The notes beneath the pieces are model-generated. The model searched no databases. It was not told the origin of the DNA and was given only the letters and a program-made list of their open reading frames with translations. From Minisyncoccota bacterium (GTDB lineage: Bacteria > Patescibacteriota > Minisyncoccia > Phycocordibacterales > UBA9973), in the NCBI GenBank assembly GCA_041661005.1, contig JBAZVG010000001.1:6019-70018 (forward strand): DNA of 64,000 nt, read 5' to 3'. The translations under genes were made by a program, and so were the position numbers. This document shows positions 9,606 to 49,134 of this stretch, one piece after another; within the stretch, counting starts at the first letter, position 1, and every line of letters begins with the position of its first letter.

Positions 9606-10404
9606 TCTGAATTTTTTTTGGGGAGTGATTCTCGCGTGCACGCACGGGTGGGTAGGCTCGCGCGTACTCGCGCGAGCTGGGGCAAGCACGAGTATTTCGC
9701 CTCGGGCATTTCCGCTAGGGTGTCCATGACTAAAGGACGAGTGCCTGACCCGAATTGAAATCCAGAAATCGAAAGCGAAAGCGACACACTAAACACAATA
9801 TTGAAAAACGTAGAGTGGGGATGGCGAGGGCAGACTCCGCCAGCAGGCGGAGAGCCCGACCCGGGGAGAGGAAACTTCCTCTCCCCAAGAAGCGCGGGAA
9901 ACCGAACGGCTCATTTCCTGGTATTTGAGCCGTTCCGGTTTTCCCGCTCATAGGCATCTAGGCACTCGTAGCCCTAGCGGAAATGCCCGAGGCGGATGCC
10001 GAGGGTGCACTCTCAAAACTCTCAATAACCACCAAAATAGAAAAATGGTATAATGCCCGAGACAATGTTTTGAATTTTGAATTTGAATTTCTCCTGCGGG
10101 CAGAATTCGGAATCTCGCCAAAAGACACAGCCGAGGAAAATGGAAATCTAAATCCCCAAAATATTTGTTTCCATTTTCCGAGTCCGTTTGAATTAGCACA
10201 TTAGTAGAGCGTGGTAGAAATATTGAAGAAAAGAAAAAAGTGGAGCGTAAACCTTGGTTCGCTTGGAAACTTTTACAAATTTCTGCTAAAGTAGGTTCTA
10301 GCGGTATCGTAAAGGTACTCCCTCGGTCGTAGATCTACGGGCGAGACCAGCCGATGTAGCTCAGCTTGCCCCGCCTGAGCTAGGCGGGGTGAAGTAGAGC
10401 ATAG

Positions 10405-10477
10405 GCCGATGTAGCTCAGTTGGTAGAGCATCGCTTTCGTAAAGCGAGGGTCGACAGTTCAATCCTGTCCATCGGCT
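10405..10477 (+). tRNA. tRNA-Thr (anticodon CGT)
   Basis: Manual cloverleaf: acceptor gccgatg/catcggc, D-arm gctc/gagc, anticodon stem tcgct/agcga, loop ttCGTaa, T-arm gacag/ctgtc. No encoded CCA. Confidence 0.85.
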
Positions 10478-10493
10478 CCGCAATAAAAATATC

Positions 10494-11573: not shown

Positions 11574-12242
11574 ATGATTTATTTCAACAATGTTTCAAAA
11601 GCTTATAGAGATGGGTTAGCATTAGACGATGTTACTTTTACAATCGTCGCTGGAGAGTTTGTCTCTATTGTCGGACATTCAGGCGCTGGCAAGACGACTC
11701 TCACTAAAATGATTTTAGCAGATGAAAATCCTTCAGGTGGGACAGTTTTTTTTGAATCCATCAATGTGCATAAATTAAAAAGCAAAGACTTGACCAAGCT
11801 CCGTAGGCGCATCGGAGTGGTATTTCAAGATTTCAAATTATTGCCAAATAAAACCGCTTACGAAAATATCGCTTTTGCGATGGAAGCAGTCGGCAAGACT
11901 GACGAGGAAATAGCCTCTGATGTTCCACATGTTTTAGAATTAGTTGATTTAAGCCATCGTCTTTTTCACTTTCCAAATCAAATGTCTGGAGGCGAACAGC
12001 AGAGGCTCGCTATCGCTCGCGCTATTATCAATCAGCCCGAGCTTATCATCGCCGATGAGCCGACGGGGAATTTGGATCCGATAAATACGCATGAAATAGT
12101 GCAAATTTTAAAAAAAATAAATGATTTGGGCACTACGGTGATCTTAGCCACCCACAATCGCGGAGTGATCGATTCGATCGGCAAGAGAGTTATTACAATG
12201 GAAAATGGCAAAGTTATTCGAGATACGAAGAATGGGAAATGA
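11574..12242 (+). CDS. ftsE: Cell-division ABC ATPase FtsE
   Basis: Walker A GHSGAGKTTL, ABC signature LSGGEQQRLAIARAI, Walker B LIIADEPTGNLD; followed by ftsX. The ORF track opens at 11535; Met at 11574 (MIYFNNVSKAY) is chosen as the start. Confidence 0.8.
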   Translation: MIYFNNVSKAYRDGLALDDVTFTIVAGEFVSIVGHSGAGKTTLTKMILADENPSGGTVFFESINVHKLKSKDLTKLRRRIGVVFQDFKLLPNKTAYENIAFAMEAVGKTDEEIASDVPHVLELVDLSHRLFHFPNQMSGGEQQRLAIARAIINQPELIIADEPTGNLDPINTHEIVQILKKINDLGTTVILATHNRGVIDSIGKRVITMENGKVIRDTKNGK

Positions 12243-26172: not shown

Positions 26173-26420
26173 GTACATTATAAAAATTTTAGAGTCCGAA
26201 TATTTTTCTGCTGAAAAATTTCTCAAGACTCGCGCCGTCGCGCTCCGTAGCCTCTAAAATCTTTACAATGTACTCAAACTTGAATTTGACTTATCCACAG
26301 TTTTGTTTAAAAAAGTATTGTTTTACATTTTAATAAGGAACATAATTAAAGTGTTTTCGCAATAGAAATTTAAGGTCGTCTTTTATTGCAAACTATTTAG
26401 AAAATTAATTTATAAATACT

Positions 26421-34365: not shown

Positions 34366-34713
34366 CAAAATTTAGGAAAATTCTTTCTTGATATAGTTTT
34401 ATCTAGACACGACATAATTTTCTGCTGAAAATTTGCTATGCTCGGCTCGACAGCCTGCGCAATGTCTATCTAAAACTACACCTGCAACAAATTTTCCTAA
34501 ATTTTACTATTTTTAACCTTATTTGTCAATATGCCTATGTCAAAATATCCTTATTTTATAAGGTTTTTTCTGTTTGACATACTGTGAAAGTATTGTATAA
34601 CTATTGACATTTAAACCGGATTATGCTATCATTAAAGTGTATCCTTATTATATAGGCCAGATGACTTATCTGCCTTATTAAATAAGGGTTTTTTAGTTTT
34701 TAGCCCAAATTAT

Positions 34714-46049: not shown

Positions 46050-46436
46050 TTAGTAAGGATATGAATAGGAATAGCTTGGGTATGAATAGTTTCCATAATA
46101 ACCGTAGTCATAACTTTCGTAAGGCATGTAAATGTAGTTATTTCCATAGTAATATGAAGGGGCGGAATAAGTAGAATAATAAGAGCTACCACAGCTATAA
46201 CCACATCCATAATCGTAGTTATTATAATCATAGCCGTAATTACTGCCTATGTAATAGGATGAGGGTTGAGAGTAAGAATAATAAGATGATCCGTTGCAAG
46301 CAAATCCGCAATTATAACCATTGTAATAACCATTAGAAATATATTTATTGTTGTAATAACTATTATTGTGCTTGGCATAAACAGGAACAGCCACAAAAGA
46401 CACTATTATTATGACTATACTAAGAAATTTTTTCAT
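46050..46436 (-). CDS. Secreted Tyr/Gly/Ser/Asn-rich low-complexity protein (~35% Tyr)
   Basis: Signal peptide, then YYNNKYISNGYYNGYNCGFACNGSSYYSYSQPSSYYIGSNYGYDYNNYDYGCGYSCGSSYY... Confidence 0.4.
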   Translation of the reverse strand: MKKFLSIVIIIVSFVAVPVYAKHNNSYYNNKYISNGYYNGYNCGFACNGSSYYSYSQPSSYYIGSNYGYDYNNYDYGCGYSCGSSYYSTYSAPSYYYGNNYIYMPYESYDYGYYGNYSYPSYSYSYPY

Positions 46437-46527
46437 ATGAATATGCTAACATTTTTAAATTTAAAAGTCAATGGCCCCGTGCAACAAGTTGCGCCGGGGC
46501 CATAGAGATGATTTGAGCTGCTTGGTT

Positions 46528-47355
46528 TTACCAAGCCCCTACCACTCTGGTAGGGTTAGGGTCGCATATGTACCCATTGTAGGGTTGCCCGAAGACAACC
46601 CTACCGCCCCAATGTGGGTACACCACTACGGGTGGCGGTGGCGGTGTCGTCCAGTATACCACTGGAGGCGGGCAGGCTGGTGGTGGCATGACTACCACAG
46701 GTTGCGGGGGGCAGACCATCGTTGGTTGTGCGGTCTGTGTGACCGCGACGCTGTTCGTCGCCGTCGCCGAAGCTTGCGCGCTGCCGGCCACGTTGTTGAT
46801 GATGATCGGTGCCGGCGCTGGCAGGTACACCACCGTGTTGGTAATCCAGTTGGTGACTACGGTCGTCGGGGGTGAAGGGGGTGTCGTCGGCAGAGGGGTT
46901 GTAGATGGGAAGAGGTTTTTCAACCTTTCAAAATACGACACCCTTCCGGCTTCATGACCGTTTCTCTGTCCCTGGAGGTAAAGGAACCTGCCCATCGCTG
47001 GGCTAAGGCCTTGAAAGTGGGTCTCCAGGACATTCGTCCCGGACATTCTCACCTCCACGGCTTCGAGTTCCTCCCCCTTGGGGAGAATCTTGACTATTTC
47101 CGGTTCCGCTGGTTTGGTGTCGGCAGCCCTGGAGGAGGATACGCAGGATGTGAGCCCCCATACTAGCAGGCCCAACAATCCCAGTGTTCCAACTGCCAAA
47201 CCGATTTTGGTCTTTCCACCGAGACTGTTGAAGGTGGTGGGGGTAGGAGGGGTATCGTTCATAGTTTGTTTCGTTGTTTGTTTGTTGTTTCCTGCAAGTT
47301 TGTCCTGCAAGACAGCAACCGAGAAAAGTTTATTTTCTAAGCTATTGTCTTGCAA
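46528..47355 (-). CDS. Pro/Thr/Val-rich membrane-anchored protein encoded in a locally GC-rich (~60%) segment
   Basis: One N-terminal TM (IGLAVGTLGLLGLLVWGL), then a PPxP-rich region (PPPACPPPVVYWTTPPPPPVVVYP). GC content is strikingly above the surrounding ~38%. Confidence 0.4.
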   Translation of the reverse strand: MQDNSLENKLFSVAVLQDKLAGNNKQTTKQTMNDTPPTPTTFNSLGGKTKIGLAVGTLGLLGLLVWGLTSCVSSSRAADTKPAEPEIVKILPKGEELEAVEVRMSGTNVLETHFQGLSPAMGRFLYLQGQRNGHEAGRVSYFERLKNLFPSTTPLPTTPPSPPTTVVTNWITNTVVYLPAPAPIIINNVAGSAQASATATNSVAVTQTAQPTMVCPPQPVVVMPPPACPPPVVYWTTPPPPPVVVYPHWGGRVVFGQPYNGYICDPNPTRVVGAW

Positions 47356-47474
47356 GAAAACATGGGCAAGAAAAACATTATGTAAAAGAACAGCTACTAC
47401 TCTATACTTTGGTAGTATAGCATATTAGAGTCCTATTGTCAAGCGTAGATTTATCTTGAAAATATCTATATTTT

Positions 47475-47714
47475 GTGGGCGAGGGGAGACTTGGTCAGGC
47501 ATAATTTTCTGCTGAAAATTTGCACGACCCTGCCTCTTCCGACCTAAAGTCGGAGTCCGGCTTTCTCGTCCTAAAATACTTCGTATTTTACCTCGTGGGC
47601 GAGGGGAGACTTGGTCAGGCATAATTTTCTGCTGAAAATTTGCACGACCCTGCCTCTTCCGACCTAAAGTCGGAGTCCGGCTTTCTCGTCCTAAAATACT
47701 TCGTATTTTACCTC
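47475..47714. repeat. Two perfect 120-bp tandem direct repeats, each beginning with the last 19 nt of tRNA-Leu(TAG) (gtgggcgaggggagacttg on this strand); the intact tRNA follows at 47716
   Basis: Read directly. Period is exactly 120 (47475, 47595, then the tRNA copy at 47715). Each unit also carries the aattttctgctgaaaattt motif and a ccgacctaaagtcggag hairpin. Confidence 0.75.
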
Positions 47715-47715
47715 G

Positions 47716-47797
47716 TGGGCGAGGGGAGACTTGAACTCCCACGGCTTGCGCCACCAGTTCCTAAGACTGGCGTGTTTACCAATTACACCACTCGCCC
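47716..47797 (-). tRNA. tRNA-Leu (anticodon TAG), type II
   Basis: Minus strand: acceptor gggcgag/ctcgccc, anticodon stem ccagt/actgg, loop ctTAGga, long variable arm, T-arm gggag-ttcaagt-ctccc. Confidence 0.85.
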
Positions 47798-48046: not shown

Positions 48047-48562
48047 TTAACTTTTTATGAAAAGATTATTTCTATCCTTCATCTTATTATGCTGTTTTGT
48101 ATTTCTTCCTCGATGTGTTGTTTGTAGACTGTGACAATTTGGACACAGAATTCTTAAGTTTTCTAATCTGTTGTCATGCCTATCTCCATTGATGTGATCT
48201 AACTCCAGGGGTACTCTACCATCAATCGACATTTTAGCCCAACTACACTCTTCACATTTAGGTTCCTTTAGTTTAACTAAAAAAAGTCTTTTTTTCAACT
48301 TAAAGCTTTGATAGGTACTATTTTTCACTAAAATATCTTTTAAAGCTATGACTGGTATAAATGGCCTTTTTAATCCTTTATTCCAGAGCATTCCTGTAAA
48401 ATGTTTTGTAGATATTTTATATTCTCTTATATATTTTTTTACTTGATCATAATTTCCACCTGCGGGCACTAATCCTAAAATTTTTATTACGTTTCTGTAA
48501 CTTTTAGAATCTTTAACTGCATTTTTTAATTGCTCTTCCGACCAACTTCTTTTTTTAGGCAT
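48047..48562 (-). CDS. HNH homing-type endonuclease (free-standing)
   Basis: ELDHINGDRHDNRLENLRILCPNCH (HNH motif with Zn-binding Cys pairs CEEC...CPNC). It lies between tRNA-Leu(TAA) and tRNA-Cys. Confidence 0.75.
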   Translation of the reverse strand: MPKKRSWSEEQLKNAVKDSKSYRNVIKILGLVPAGGNYDQVKKYIREYKISTKHFTGMLWNKGLKRPFIPVIALKDILVKNSTYQSFKLKKRLFLVKLKEPKCEECSWAKMSIDGRVPLELDHINGDRHDNRLENLRILCPNCHSLQTTHRGRNTKQHNKMKDRNNLFIKS

Positions 48563-48634: not shown

Positions 48635-48709
48635 TGGAGGCCTGGGGCGGAATTGAACCGCCGTATATTCCTTTTGCAGAGGAATGCCTTACCACTTGGC
48701 TACCAGGCC
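48635..48709 (-). tRNA. tRNA-Cys (anticodon GCA), CCA encoded, discriminator U73
   Basis: Minus strand: acceptor ggcctgg/ccaggcc, anticodon stem ttcct/aggaa, loop ctGCAaa, T-arm ggcgg-ttcaatt-ccgcc, then T-CCA. Confidence 0.85.
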
Positions 48710-48729: not shown

Positions 48730-48775
48730 TTAAAGCCTCTGCGCAGAGGAATGCCTTGCTGTCTTGGCTACCAGG
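48730..48775 (-). other. Degenerate partial copy of the tRNA-Cys 5' half (pseudo-tRNA fragment) just upstream of the intact gene
   Basis: ctgcgcagaggaatgccttgctgtcttggctaccaggcc, compared with the gene's cttttgcagaggaatgccttaccacttggctaccaggcc. Confidence 0.5.
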
Positions 48776-48810
48776 CCGTTTTTAAACTATAACCTATAAC
48801 CTAGAAGCTA

Positions 48811-49134
48811 TCAACTGTTCCGTAGCAGTTCGTCAATTTTTTGTCTGTGTTTTTCTCCGAGGTCGATGGCGATGTCGACGAATGGAATATTTTTTGTGGT
48901 CATTCTTTTCTTGAAAAATTCCCGCAATTCCGGCCTTTTGCGTTTAGCAAATTCCAATGCTGTTTTCTCTTTATCAGTAGGGAACACGGTGATGAATACG
49001 GTTGCGCGTTTCAAATCTGGGGAACAAGTCGCAGAGGTTACCGTAACGAGCGAAGTTCTGTTATTCTCTCGACCCAAAAACTCTGCTGTGAGTTCTTTTA
49101 AATGGTTTGCAACTTTTTCGTTTCTTTCACTCAT
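48811..49134 (-). CDS. rbfA: Ribosome-binding factor A
   Basis: 107 aa. VANHLKELTAEFL...TVTSATCSPDLKRATVFITV matches the RbfA KH-like core. Downstream of infB in the same orientation. Confidence 0.8.
   Translation of the reverse strand: MSERNEKVANHLKELTAEFLGRENNRTSLVTVTSATCSPDLKRATVFITVFPTDKEKTALEFAKRKRPELREFFKKRMTTKNIPFVDIAIDLGEKHRQKIDELLRNS

Follow-up and report, generated by a model that had tools for sequence, protein, structure and literature searches.

A tRNA-end-bearing tandem repeat beside tRNA-Leu(TAG) of a Minisyncoccota bacterium as a possible copy of a tRNA-linked structured RNA

A 64,000-nucleotide stretch of contig JBAZVG010000001.1 from a Minisyncoccota bacterium (the window, meaning the whole stretch analyzed) carries, downstream of its tRNA-Leu(TAG) gene, two 120-bp direct repeats that each contain a replica of the 3' end of that tRNA. 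The explanation favored here, which we hold with about even confidence, is that the 120-bp unit is a copy, of a form called type A below, of a conserved tRNA-linked structured RNA, a trailer element resembling the RtT repeats of Escherichia coli and present in Nomurabacteria and related uncultured bacteria. If this is correct, the repeat would be the visible part of a large uncatalogued family of tRNA-tied RNAs, with more than 100 copies, in the Candidate Phyla Radiation (CPR).

The repeat array and related elements

Tandem Repeats Finder places the array at 47475-47733, with a period of 120, 2.2 copies, 100% matches and 0 indels, which confirms the perfect direct repeats described in an earlier sequence-only reading of this DNA. 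As the two units are identical, one possibility is a recent duplication, the other being that the copy number, which is taken as assembled from a metagenome, is uncertain. The tRNA-Leu(TAG) gene lies at 47715/47716-47797 on the minus strand according to ARAGORN and Rfam (63.3 bits with the Rfam tRNA model). As the same reading had noted, the end of the tRNA appears three times in phase: the 19-mer GTGGGCGAGGGGAGACTTG occurs exactly at 47475, 47595 and 47715, and no further copy is found in the 64-kb window at up to 3 mismatches (chance expectation, 0.00). On the RNA (minus) strand, the 19-mer reads CAAGUCUCCCCUCGCCCAC and corresponds to tRNA positions 56-74, spanning the 3' half of the T-loop, the 3' strands of the T-stem and the acceptor stem, the discriminator A73 and C74. 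The unit begins at the nucleotide directly after C74 of the tRNA, and only 101 nt separate successive 19-nt copies. The array folds far more strongly than shuffled sequences (z = -7.25), and the two hairpins per unit mentioned in the earlier reading are both real, being the conserved stems hp1 and hp2 described below. No cloverleaf is detected in 47475-47714 by ARAGORN or the Rfam tRNA model. Also, exact look-ups of three window proteins, aimed at strain-level variation in copy number, returned no match.

Similar arrangements are present in relatives, whose loci are designated by L numbers. Among 56 GTDB relatives with tRNA-Leu(TAG), 7 repeat the last 19 nt of their own tRNA exactly, at a distance of 93-104 nt downstream (L005, L014, L017, L018, L019, L039 and L078), the sequence of the tRNA end differing among genomes. 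The stretch between the tRNA-end copies is structured, and two forms can be distinguished, type A at tRNA-Leu(TAG) of the window, L019, L014/L017 and L039, and type B at that of L078, L005 and L018. Type B is also found after tRNA-Leu(TAA), tRNA-Lys(CTT) and tRNA-Gly(CCC), in each case ending in positions 57-74 of its own tRNA. The number of copies at tRNA-Leu(TAG) varies among genomes between 0, 1 and 2; for example, L078 has two tandem 112-bp units, as in the window. Tandem reiteration also occurs in L202, which has a second unit.

A wider type A set was obtained by scanning metagenomes for the core pattern (at least 120 loci), adding the GTDB loci and applying nhmmer, which recovered at least 114 type A elements. 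Among the 114 listed, 89 have a tRNA no more than 200 nt upstream on the same strand, and 8 more lie at contig ends. Their hosts comprise at least 27 tRNA species for at least 14 amino acids, and in 65 of the 78 scorable listed elements (83%) the element follows the last tRNA of a cluster, as in the eight-tRNA cluster of L279. An exact copy of the 3' end of the own tRNA closes 36 listed elements; in 30 of these, the identity begins at position 56, and C74 is always included, while many further listed copies hold the same tRNA segment with 1-3 mismatches or indels. The tRNA-end repeat has its left edge at position 56-61 and runs 1-48 nt past N73.

The covariance model R1 gives 40-95 bits to elements of relatives and of metagenome contigs. 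It matches the proximal unit of the window at 47604-47694 (68 bits, a score that is not independent evidence because the window sequence is in the R1 seed) and the distal unit at 47484-47574. Independent support comes from BLAST, in which nucleotides 59-103 of the unit are 91-98% identical to elements of L039, L072, L043 and L001, the matching element being located between tRNA-Lys and tRNA-Leu(TAG). Searches of the CPR literature found no description of such elements.

A further array is seen in L270, where three more copies of a tRNA 3' end with 73-nt spacing stand downstream of tRNA-Thr(TGT), before a type A element. From its layout, this array indicates another, shorter kind of unit that bears a tRNA end.

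Predicted fold and role of the element

In type A elements, the order along the RNA is the tRNA, a trailer hairpin, a strand X', GAAAG, GCC-GGAG-hp1-CGAG-GGC, GG, GGUCG-hp2-UGACC and a strand X. Within the core, GCC/GGC makes up stem P2, and GGA/GA makes up an internal loop. The trailer hairpin is either terminator-like or small with an ACGAAGU loop, the latter being the case in the window. X is the replica of positions 56/57-74 of the own tRNA, often extended to CCA, and pairs with X' to form helix P1. When well preserved, X' consists of the acceptor 5' strand, the T-stem 5' strand and a complement of T-loop nucleotides 57-60, as in L293 (GGGCGAU CGAGG AAUC / core / GAUU CCUCG AUCGCCC G), and in L267, L268 and L299 a conserved hairpin is present where the D/anticodon domain would emerge. 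The predicted element mimics the acceptor/T-arm half of a tRNA (a minihelix), with a three-way junction in the place of the T-loop.

The statistics of this structure were derived from 37 sequences in an alignment named A1. Paired cells amount to 88.4%, compared with 70.4±0.7% in shuffles and 37-42% when the partners are slid along each other, and 218 cells are changed on both sides, compared with 68 in shuffles. Compensatory changes are found in 22 of the 32 pairs (hp2, 11/16; hp1, 4/4; P1, 7/9). Stem hp2, also called P3, has 95.9% of the cells of its 16 pairs paired, including one G.U pair that is invariant (37/37). Covarying P1 pairs include those opposite T-loop nucleotides 57, 59 and 60, and nucleotide 59 pairs as AU in 14 cases, CG in 11, UA in 8 and GC in 2; since this nucleotide is unpaired in the tRNA, X' must be a true complement and not a copied tRNA sequence. 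Moreover, G.U cells outnumber A.C cells (83 versus 27) and thereby assign the fold to the tRNA-sense strand, and 24 core columns are invariant across sequences ranging from 36 to 72% GC. The invariant core, the compensated stems and the strand-specific invariant G.U pair together indicate purifying selection on a folded single strand. Whether X' follows X2, the copy that closes the element, or the tRNA itself could be scored at only 7 informative sites, which split 4 versus 2 versus 1.

The ends of the element also resemble those of a tRNA. Of 35 elements, 11 have a sequence that mimics the acceptor 5' strand with no more than 1 mismatch, compared with 6.9% in cross-controls (P=1.4e-5), and CCA follows the copy in 16 of 36 cases, including 6 of the 25 whose tRNA gene lacks CCA (P=0.003). 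The CCA enrichment and the acceptor mimics suggest a function at the RNA ends. In addition, Rfam detects RNase P RNA on one element-bearing contig.

In the window, the array consists of the following parts, all on the minus strand.

47715..47797: tRNA-Leu(TAG), the last gene of its cluster, whose final 19 nt (47715-47733) are copy X1.
47595..47714: proximal 120-nt unit (Tandem Repeats Finder), with GAGG, hp0, GGAC(GA), GAAAG, P2/hp1, GG, hp2 and X2 in RNA order.
47475..47594: distal 120-nt unit, ending in X3 and matching the proximal unit at 100% identity.
47692..47710 (second copy, 47572-47590): trailer hairpin hp0, UAAAAUACGAAGUAUUUUA, whose ACGAAGU loop motif is also seen in other elements.
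47681..47691 (second copy, 47561-47571): X' (GGAC, then GA) and the junction GAAAG, from alignment A1 and the fold.
47656..47675 (second copy, 47536-47555): hp1, CUCCGACUUUAGGUCGGAAG, with P2 pairs GCC/GGC on both flanks.
47613..47649 (second copy, 47493-47529): hp2/P3, GGUCGUGCAAAUUUUCAGCAGAAAAUUAUGCCUGACC, which stacks directly on P1.
47595..47613: X2, an exact copy of tRNA positions 56-74, forming the 3' strand of helix P1 and of the acceptor mimic in the first unit.
47475..47493: X3, an exact copy of tRNA positions 56-74 and the 3' end of the second unit, followed by AAAAUAUAG... and then by the promoter.
47414..47442: sigma-70-type promoter TTGACA-17-TATACT, TG-extended, which belongs to the next gene, lies outside the element and marks its distal boundary.

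The gene order in the cluster is tRNA-Cys, an open reading frame (ORF) for an HNH protein, tRNA-Leu(TAA), tRNA-Lys(CTT) and tRNA-Leu(TAG), and the order of the tRNAs is conserved in relatives. The window row of A1 keeps all invariant columns except for CGAG changed to AGAG and one G to A in GGCAGGG. GGAC pairs with G59-U62 of X, and GAGG (47711-47714) with C65-C68. A reading of hp1 (CCGACUUUAGGUCGG) as the anticodon arm of a pseudo-tRNA was rejected, as hp1 varies freely in relatives and neither ARAGORN nor Rfam sees a tRNA.

Our best guess for the role of the element is that of a trailer RNA of tRNA operons with tRNA-like ends for processing. It would be transcribed together with the upstream tRNA, and its ends would be recognized by RNase P at the 5' side and by RNase Z and the CCA-adding enzyme at N73/C74. 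Such processing would free a discrete stable RNA and define where the transcript of the tRNA operon ends on its 3' side. The duplication in the window could be recent and stem from the 19-nt direct repeats, which most likely recombined unequally or else slipped during replication, and the same process could delete the element and leave the "empty" sites seen in relatives.

Several observations weigh against this explanation. The acceptor parts are degenerate in many copies, and among the metagenomic copies about one in two has a terminator-like hairpin between the tRNA and X', which would limit co-transcription. At tRNA-Leu(TAG), the element is sporadic, occurring in 7/56 relatives, and must therefore be dispensable. 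For the window itself, the X':X pairing is weak, with 4+4 bp that include non-canonical pairs (GGAC/GUCU and GAGG/CCUC) and with hp0 in between, and the consensus-like fold has -38.9 kcal/mol compared with -43.1 for the minimum free energy structure; judged from these folds, the window copies of the element may be decaying. Furthermore, none of the proposed enzymes requires exact identity between X and the tRNA, which needs a separate explanation. This identity may reflect recent duplication, gene conversion, template switching or mobility of the core.

A more specialized possibility, which we regard as doubtful, is that many uncultured CPR bacteria have RNAs physically coupled to individual tRNA genes, each RNA combining an exact acceptor/T-arm replica with a three-way-junction domain for sensing or protein binding and acting as a gate for tRNA maturation or as a decoy. 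As a gate, competing X1:X' and X':X2 helices could control maturation of the upstream tRNA; as a decoy, the element could be a tRNA-specific lure for enzymes or toxins that read tRNA ends. If either were true, this would be a tRNA-linked form of regulation or defense of a kind not described before, and E. coli RtT would be an isolated convergent example.

Alternative origins and genomic setting

It is unlikely that the element is a non-autonomous mobile DNA whose core inserts repeatedly and in trans at the T-loop of tRNA genes, duplicating the 3' end. Of the tandemly amplifying satellite of the sequence-only reading, the discrete unit bounded by copies of the tRNA end and the 0, 1 or 2 copies among genomes hold in a loose sense, whereas integration at the tRNA end as an att site is not supported. 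In favor of mobility, presence and absence are polymorphic with exact boundaries, and unrelated cores occur at the same tRNA allele (type A in L014/L017, type B in L018). In L005, two type B copies at different tRNAs are identical over about 50 nt of their core, and the window hp2 is 44/45 identical to that of the L039 element after tRNA-Lys, while translation initiation factor IF-2 is only 73% identical. Also, a contig may hold several copies, such as the 4 in 12 kb of L279. On the other hand, the element has no terminal inverted repeats of its own and no transposase or integrase nearby, and its core is missing from viral contigs. The duplicated stretch is variable and can add a CCA absent from the gene or up to 48 nt of trailer, and a duplication of the target with a fixed stagger was rejected for the same behavior, with a variable right boundary and CCA gained. 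Moreover, X' complements the specific target, including the unpaired T-loop nucleotides 57-60, and simple insertion cannot generate this.

We consider it distinctly unlikely that the element is a functionless by-product of replication, in which trailer hairpins, those of the terminator or the core, drive intrastrand template switching (quasi-palindrome extension) or partial tandem duplicates of tRNAs decay. In the template-switch version, the tRNA end would be copied first inverted, as X', and then directly, as X. This accounts for the direct-inverted-direct geometry of X1, hairpin, X', core and X2, for the way in which X changes with the tRNA and for repeats that reach into the trailer. The degeneracy of many copies fits as well, as do the partial copies with a D-loop hairpin found upstream of tRNA-Cys and tRNA-Thr, both in the window and among relatives. 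However, a by-product of this sort leaves the origin of the conserved core unexplained, and it is at odds with the 24 columns that stay invariant at 36-72% GC, with the compensated stems and the strand-specific invariant G.U, and with the function at RNA ends that CCA and the acceptor mimics suggest.

Finally, it is highly improbable that integration and excision by a tyrosine integrase at the tRNA 3' end left reiterated attL/attR sites at an island hotspot, a model that fails every tested feature except the direct repeat from the T-loop to the 3' end. That repeat does start in the T-loop and run to the tRNA end, as in the attB site of mycobacteriophage Ms6 (PMC1762012), and the sporadic HNH gene, two GC-anomalous genes nearby and the displaced 3' end of another tRNA-Leu allele in L048 would also fit. 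The repeated site-specific integration and excision that the sequence-only reading proposed is nevertheless not borne out: Pfam finds no integrase among the 10 ORFs of 40.7-48.6 kb, the payload between copies is 101 nt, the 19-mer is a base-paired strand of a conserved structured element, and the distal att copy that this reading would expect does not appear elsewhere in the 64 kb at up to 3 mismatches. Type A elements occur at 27 or more tRNA species, and each has the end of its own tRNA together with an internal complementary strand, which integration would not create. A phage attP origin was likewise rejected, as type A and type B cores are absent from the 2.9 million viral contigs of IMG/VR and a looser pattern gave 120 chance matches, none of them confirmed by nhmmer.

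The adjacent 5.6 kb is not an island either, and the integration hotspot that the earlier reading saw in the locus is not supported. The neighboring genes that it named do exist, Pfam confirming HNH, IPT/TIG and five T4SS-pilin-like proteins and also identifying a solute-binding protein. The flanking block is syntenic, with IPT/TIG, the pilin paralogues and the solute-binding protein following this tRNA cluster in 37-40 of 80 related loci. The promoter past the array is also orthologous to one that, in about 15 relatives, adjoins the tRNA 3' end either immediately or across a short AT-rich spacer. Compared with L009 and L015, the window differs by exactly two units and L019 by one.

The window itself carries bacterial 16S rRNA and transfer-messenger RNA (tmRNA) genes according to Rfam, and its IF-2 is 67-82% identical to that of metagenome-assembled genomes of Candidatus Nomurabacteria/Paceibacterota, which places the DNA in a CPR bacterium. 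Within the cluster, the HNH ORF (48047-48562, minus strand) is free-standing between tRNA-Cys and tRNA-Leu(TAA), and only 3 of 80 relatives have it in this position (L009, L073 and L047; 81-91% identity). In L013, L035, L065 and L070, a different insert of about 0.7-0.9 kb stands between tRNA-Lys and tRNA-Leu(TAG), and these sporadic insertions imply that the tRNA cluster attracts homing-endonuclease-like genes. On the other side of the array, a GC-anomalous Pro/Thr-rich ORF (0.58 compared with about 0.40) and a Tyr-rich ORF lie at 46050-47355 (minus strand), between the promoter and IPT/TIG. Pfam matches neither ORF, and the only homologues found are in L011, elsewhere in that genome; the pair is probably a small acquired or fast-evolving insert. 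As for L048, its functional tRNA-Leu(TAG) ends in ..CCCCTCGCCCAC and is followed 24 nt downstream by CGAAGTCTCCCTCCCGGCAC and then by the promoter (11715-11760). The displaced CGAAGTCTCCCTCCCGGCAC is the 3' end of another allele type of tRNA-Leu(TAG), seen in L023 and L049, and reads as a remnant left when the whole tRNA gene was replaced.

Partial tRNA replicas also occur on the 5' side of tRNA genes in the window. Upstream of tRNA-Cys (48635-48709), the operon leader at 48738-48777 (minus strand) opens with a replica of nucleotides 1-15 and approximately 22-34 of that tRNA, in which the D-loop is changed and a hairpin, CCUCUGC/GCAGAGG, is added. The replica is present in at least 12 relatives, where it changes along with the tRNA-Cys sequence, and appears to be the 5'-side counterpart of the 3' replicas. 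Upstream of tRNA-Thr (10405-10479), positions 10350-10404 (plus strand) hold a replica of nucleotides 1-16 and the D-stem 3' strand, into whose D-loop a GC-rich hairpin, CCCCGCC UGAGCUA GGCGGGG, is inserted, with a hairpin loop complementary to tRNA nucleotides 8-14; a similar hairpin is found in a tRNA-Tyr replica of L063. The promoter of the tRNA operon, TTGATA-17-TATAGT at 48783-48814 (minus strand), overlaps four TAGGTTA heptamers directly past the rbfA stop codon, and these heptamers are conserved in L005 and L014.

The two-hairpin module of the element is also found without a tRNA, at 26188-26258 and 34412-34459 (both minus strand), where it tips long, locus-specific intergenic hairpins. 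It consists of GGAG-GCGC GACG GCGC-GAG and an AU-rich hairpin with an AGCA loop, and R1 scores it at 29.7 bits at 26188. Orthologues are present in L011, L012, L013, L027 and L047, and the module is also located about 0.9 kb upstream of IF-2 in L012, L039, L077 and L014.

Comparison with known systems

In the window, in L044 and in 9 element-bearing loci, Rfam searches (gathering score and E<=10) returned only tRNAs, RNase P, tmRNA and small-subunit rRNA. Self-cleaving ribozymes (hammerhead, twister, pistol, hatchet and hepatitis delta virus) as well as T-box, YrlA and signal recognition particle RNA were rejected, having no Rfam matches and their conserved cores being missing. An array of the CRISPR type or of a type III toxin-antitoxin system (ToxI-like) was rejected as well, given the identical "spacers" and the absence of a cas-like or toxN-like neighbor.

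Direct repeats of a tRNA end are routinely read as att sites of islands. The Ms6 integrase uses a T-loop attB site, and att sites of this class share with the window the direct repeat from the T-loop to the tRNA 3' end (PMC1762012). Unlike att-site islands, there is no integrase, kb-scale payload or distal boundary here and the flanks are syntenic, and unlike att sites, the window-type repeat is base-paired within a conserved RNA fold. If the favored explanation is right, these repeats are a class that does not represent integration scars.

The tRNA mimic YrlA (PMC4201824) and other Y-RNA-like RNAs of this kind, the tRNA-like structures of viruses and mascRNA share with the element the imitation of the acceptor/T-arm and an N73 followed by C or CCA at the 3' end, plausibly a way of engaging tRNA-processing enzymes. 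The Rfam models for YrlA, mascRNA and tRNA do not match the element, and unlike tRNA-like structures, the T-loop is replaced and the sequence of the adjacent tRNA is copied exactly.

Miniature inverted-repeat transposable elements (MITEs) and the palindromic elements of Rickettsia are small, non-coding, hairpin-rich, multi-copy and sporadic between genomes, and the element has all of these traits. It differs from MITEs in that it has no conserved terminal inverted repeats or fixed target duplication, its flanks are target-specific in both orientations and its association with tRNA 3' ends is strict.

The closest counterpart is found in E. coli, where the tyrT/RtT repeats have been known since 1978. 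In strain K-12, 3.1 copies of a 178-bp unit with 95% identity follow tyrV, and AATCCTTCCCCCACCACCA, corresponding to positions 58-76 of tRNA-Tyr, occurs six times at tyrT-tyrV, namely in two genes, one spacer and three repeat-unit ends. The Rfam family RF00391 (RtT) matches this locus four times, the outer helix of its consensus, GgGaaGGAU : AUCCuuCcC, being the equivalent of the X':X pairing, and the E. coli record annotates the small RNA rttR and tpr at tyrT-tyrV. One repeat unit encodes rttR, and the rtT RNA arises from the operon transcript by processing (PMC3318445, citing Bosl & Kersten 1991); how rttR acts is still given as unknown in a later source (bioRxiv 10.1101/2024.07.17.603846).

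Short stretches at the junction also look alike. X' is followed by GAUGAGAAGC in RtT (E. coli, L321) and by GACGAGAAAGCC in the window (47681-47691), and X is preceded by CUGAGU in RtT and CUGACC in the window, a resemblance that covariance models do not score as homology.

Homology with RtT was rejected, since searches were negative in both directions: RF00391 has no match in the window or in the 9 element-bearing loci at the gathering score and E<=10, and against the E. coli locus R1 does not exceed 6.8 bits. The core of the CPR element is a different, conserved three-way junction; the unit has approximately 100-120 nt compared with 178 and is without a tpr-like ORF, and the family serves at least 27 tRNA species whereas RtT serves one. 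Nonetheless, both are tandemly reiterated in the 3' trailer of tRNA genes, and in both the final 19 nt of the unit repeat the tRNA terminus starting in the T-loop (positions 58-76 in RtT and 56-74 in the window). In both, this copy pairs with a complementary stretch further upstream and so encloses a structured domain. From these shared features, the CPR element would work like RtT and yet not be a member of its family. If the favored explanation holds, the E. coli tyrT/RtT repeats gain a broad, independent counterpart in which a replica of the tRNA end closes a structured domain, and the role of tRNA trailers becomes open to comparative and biochemical testing.

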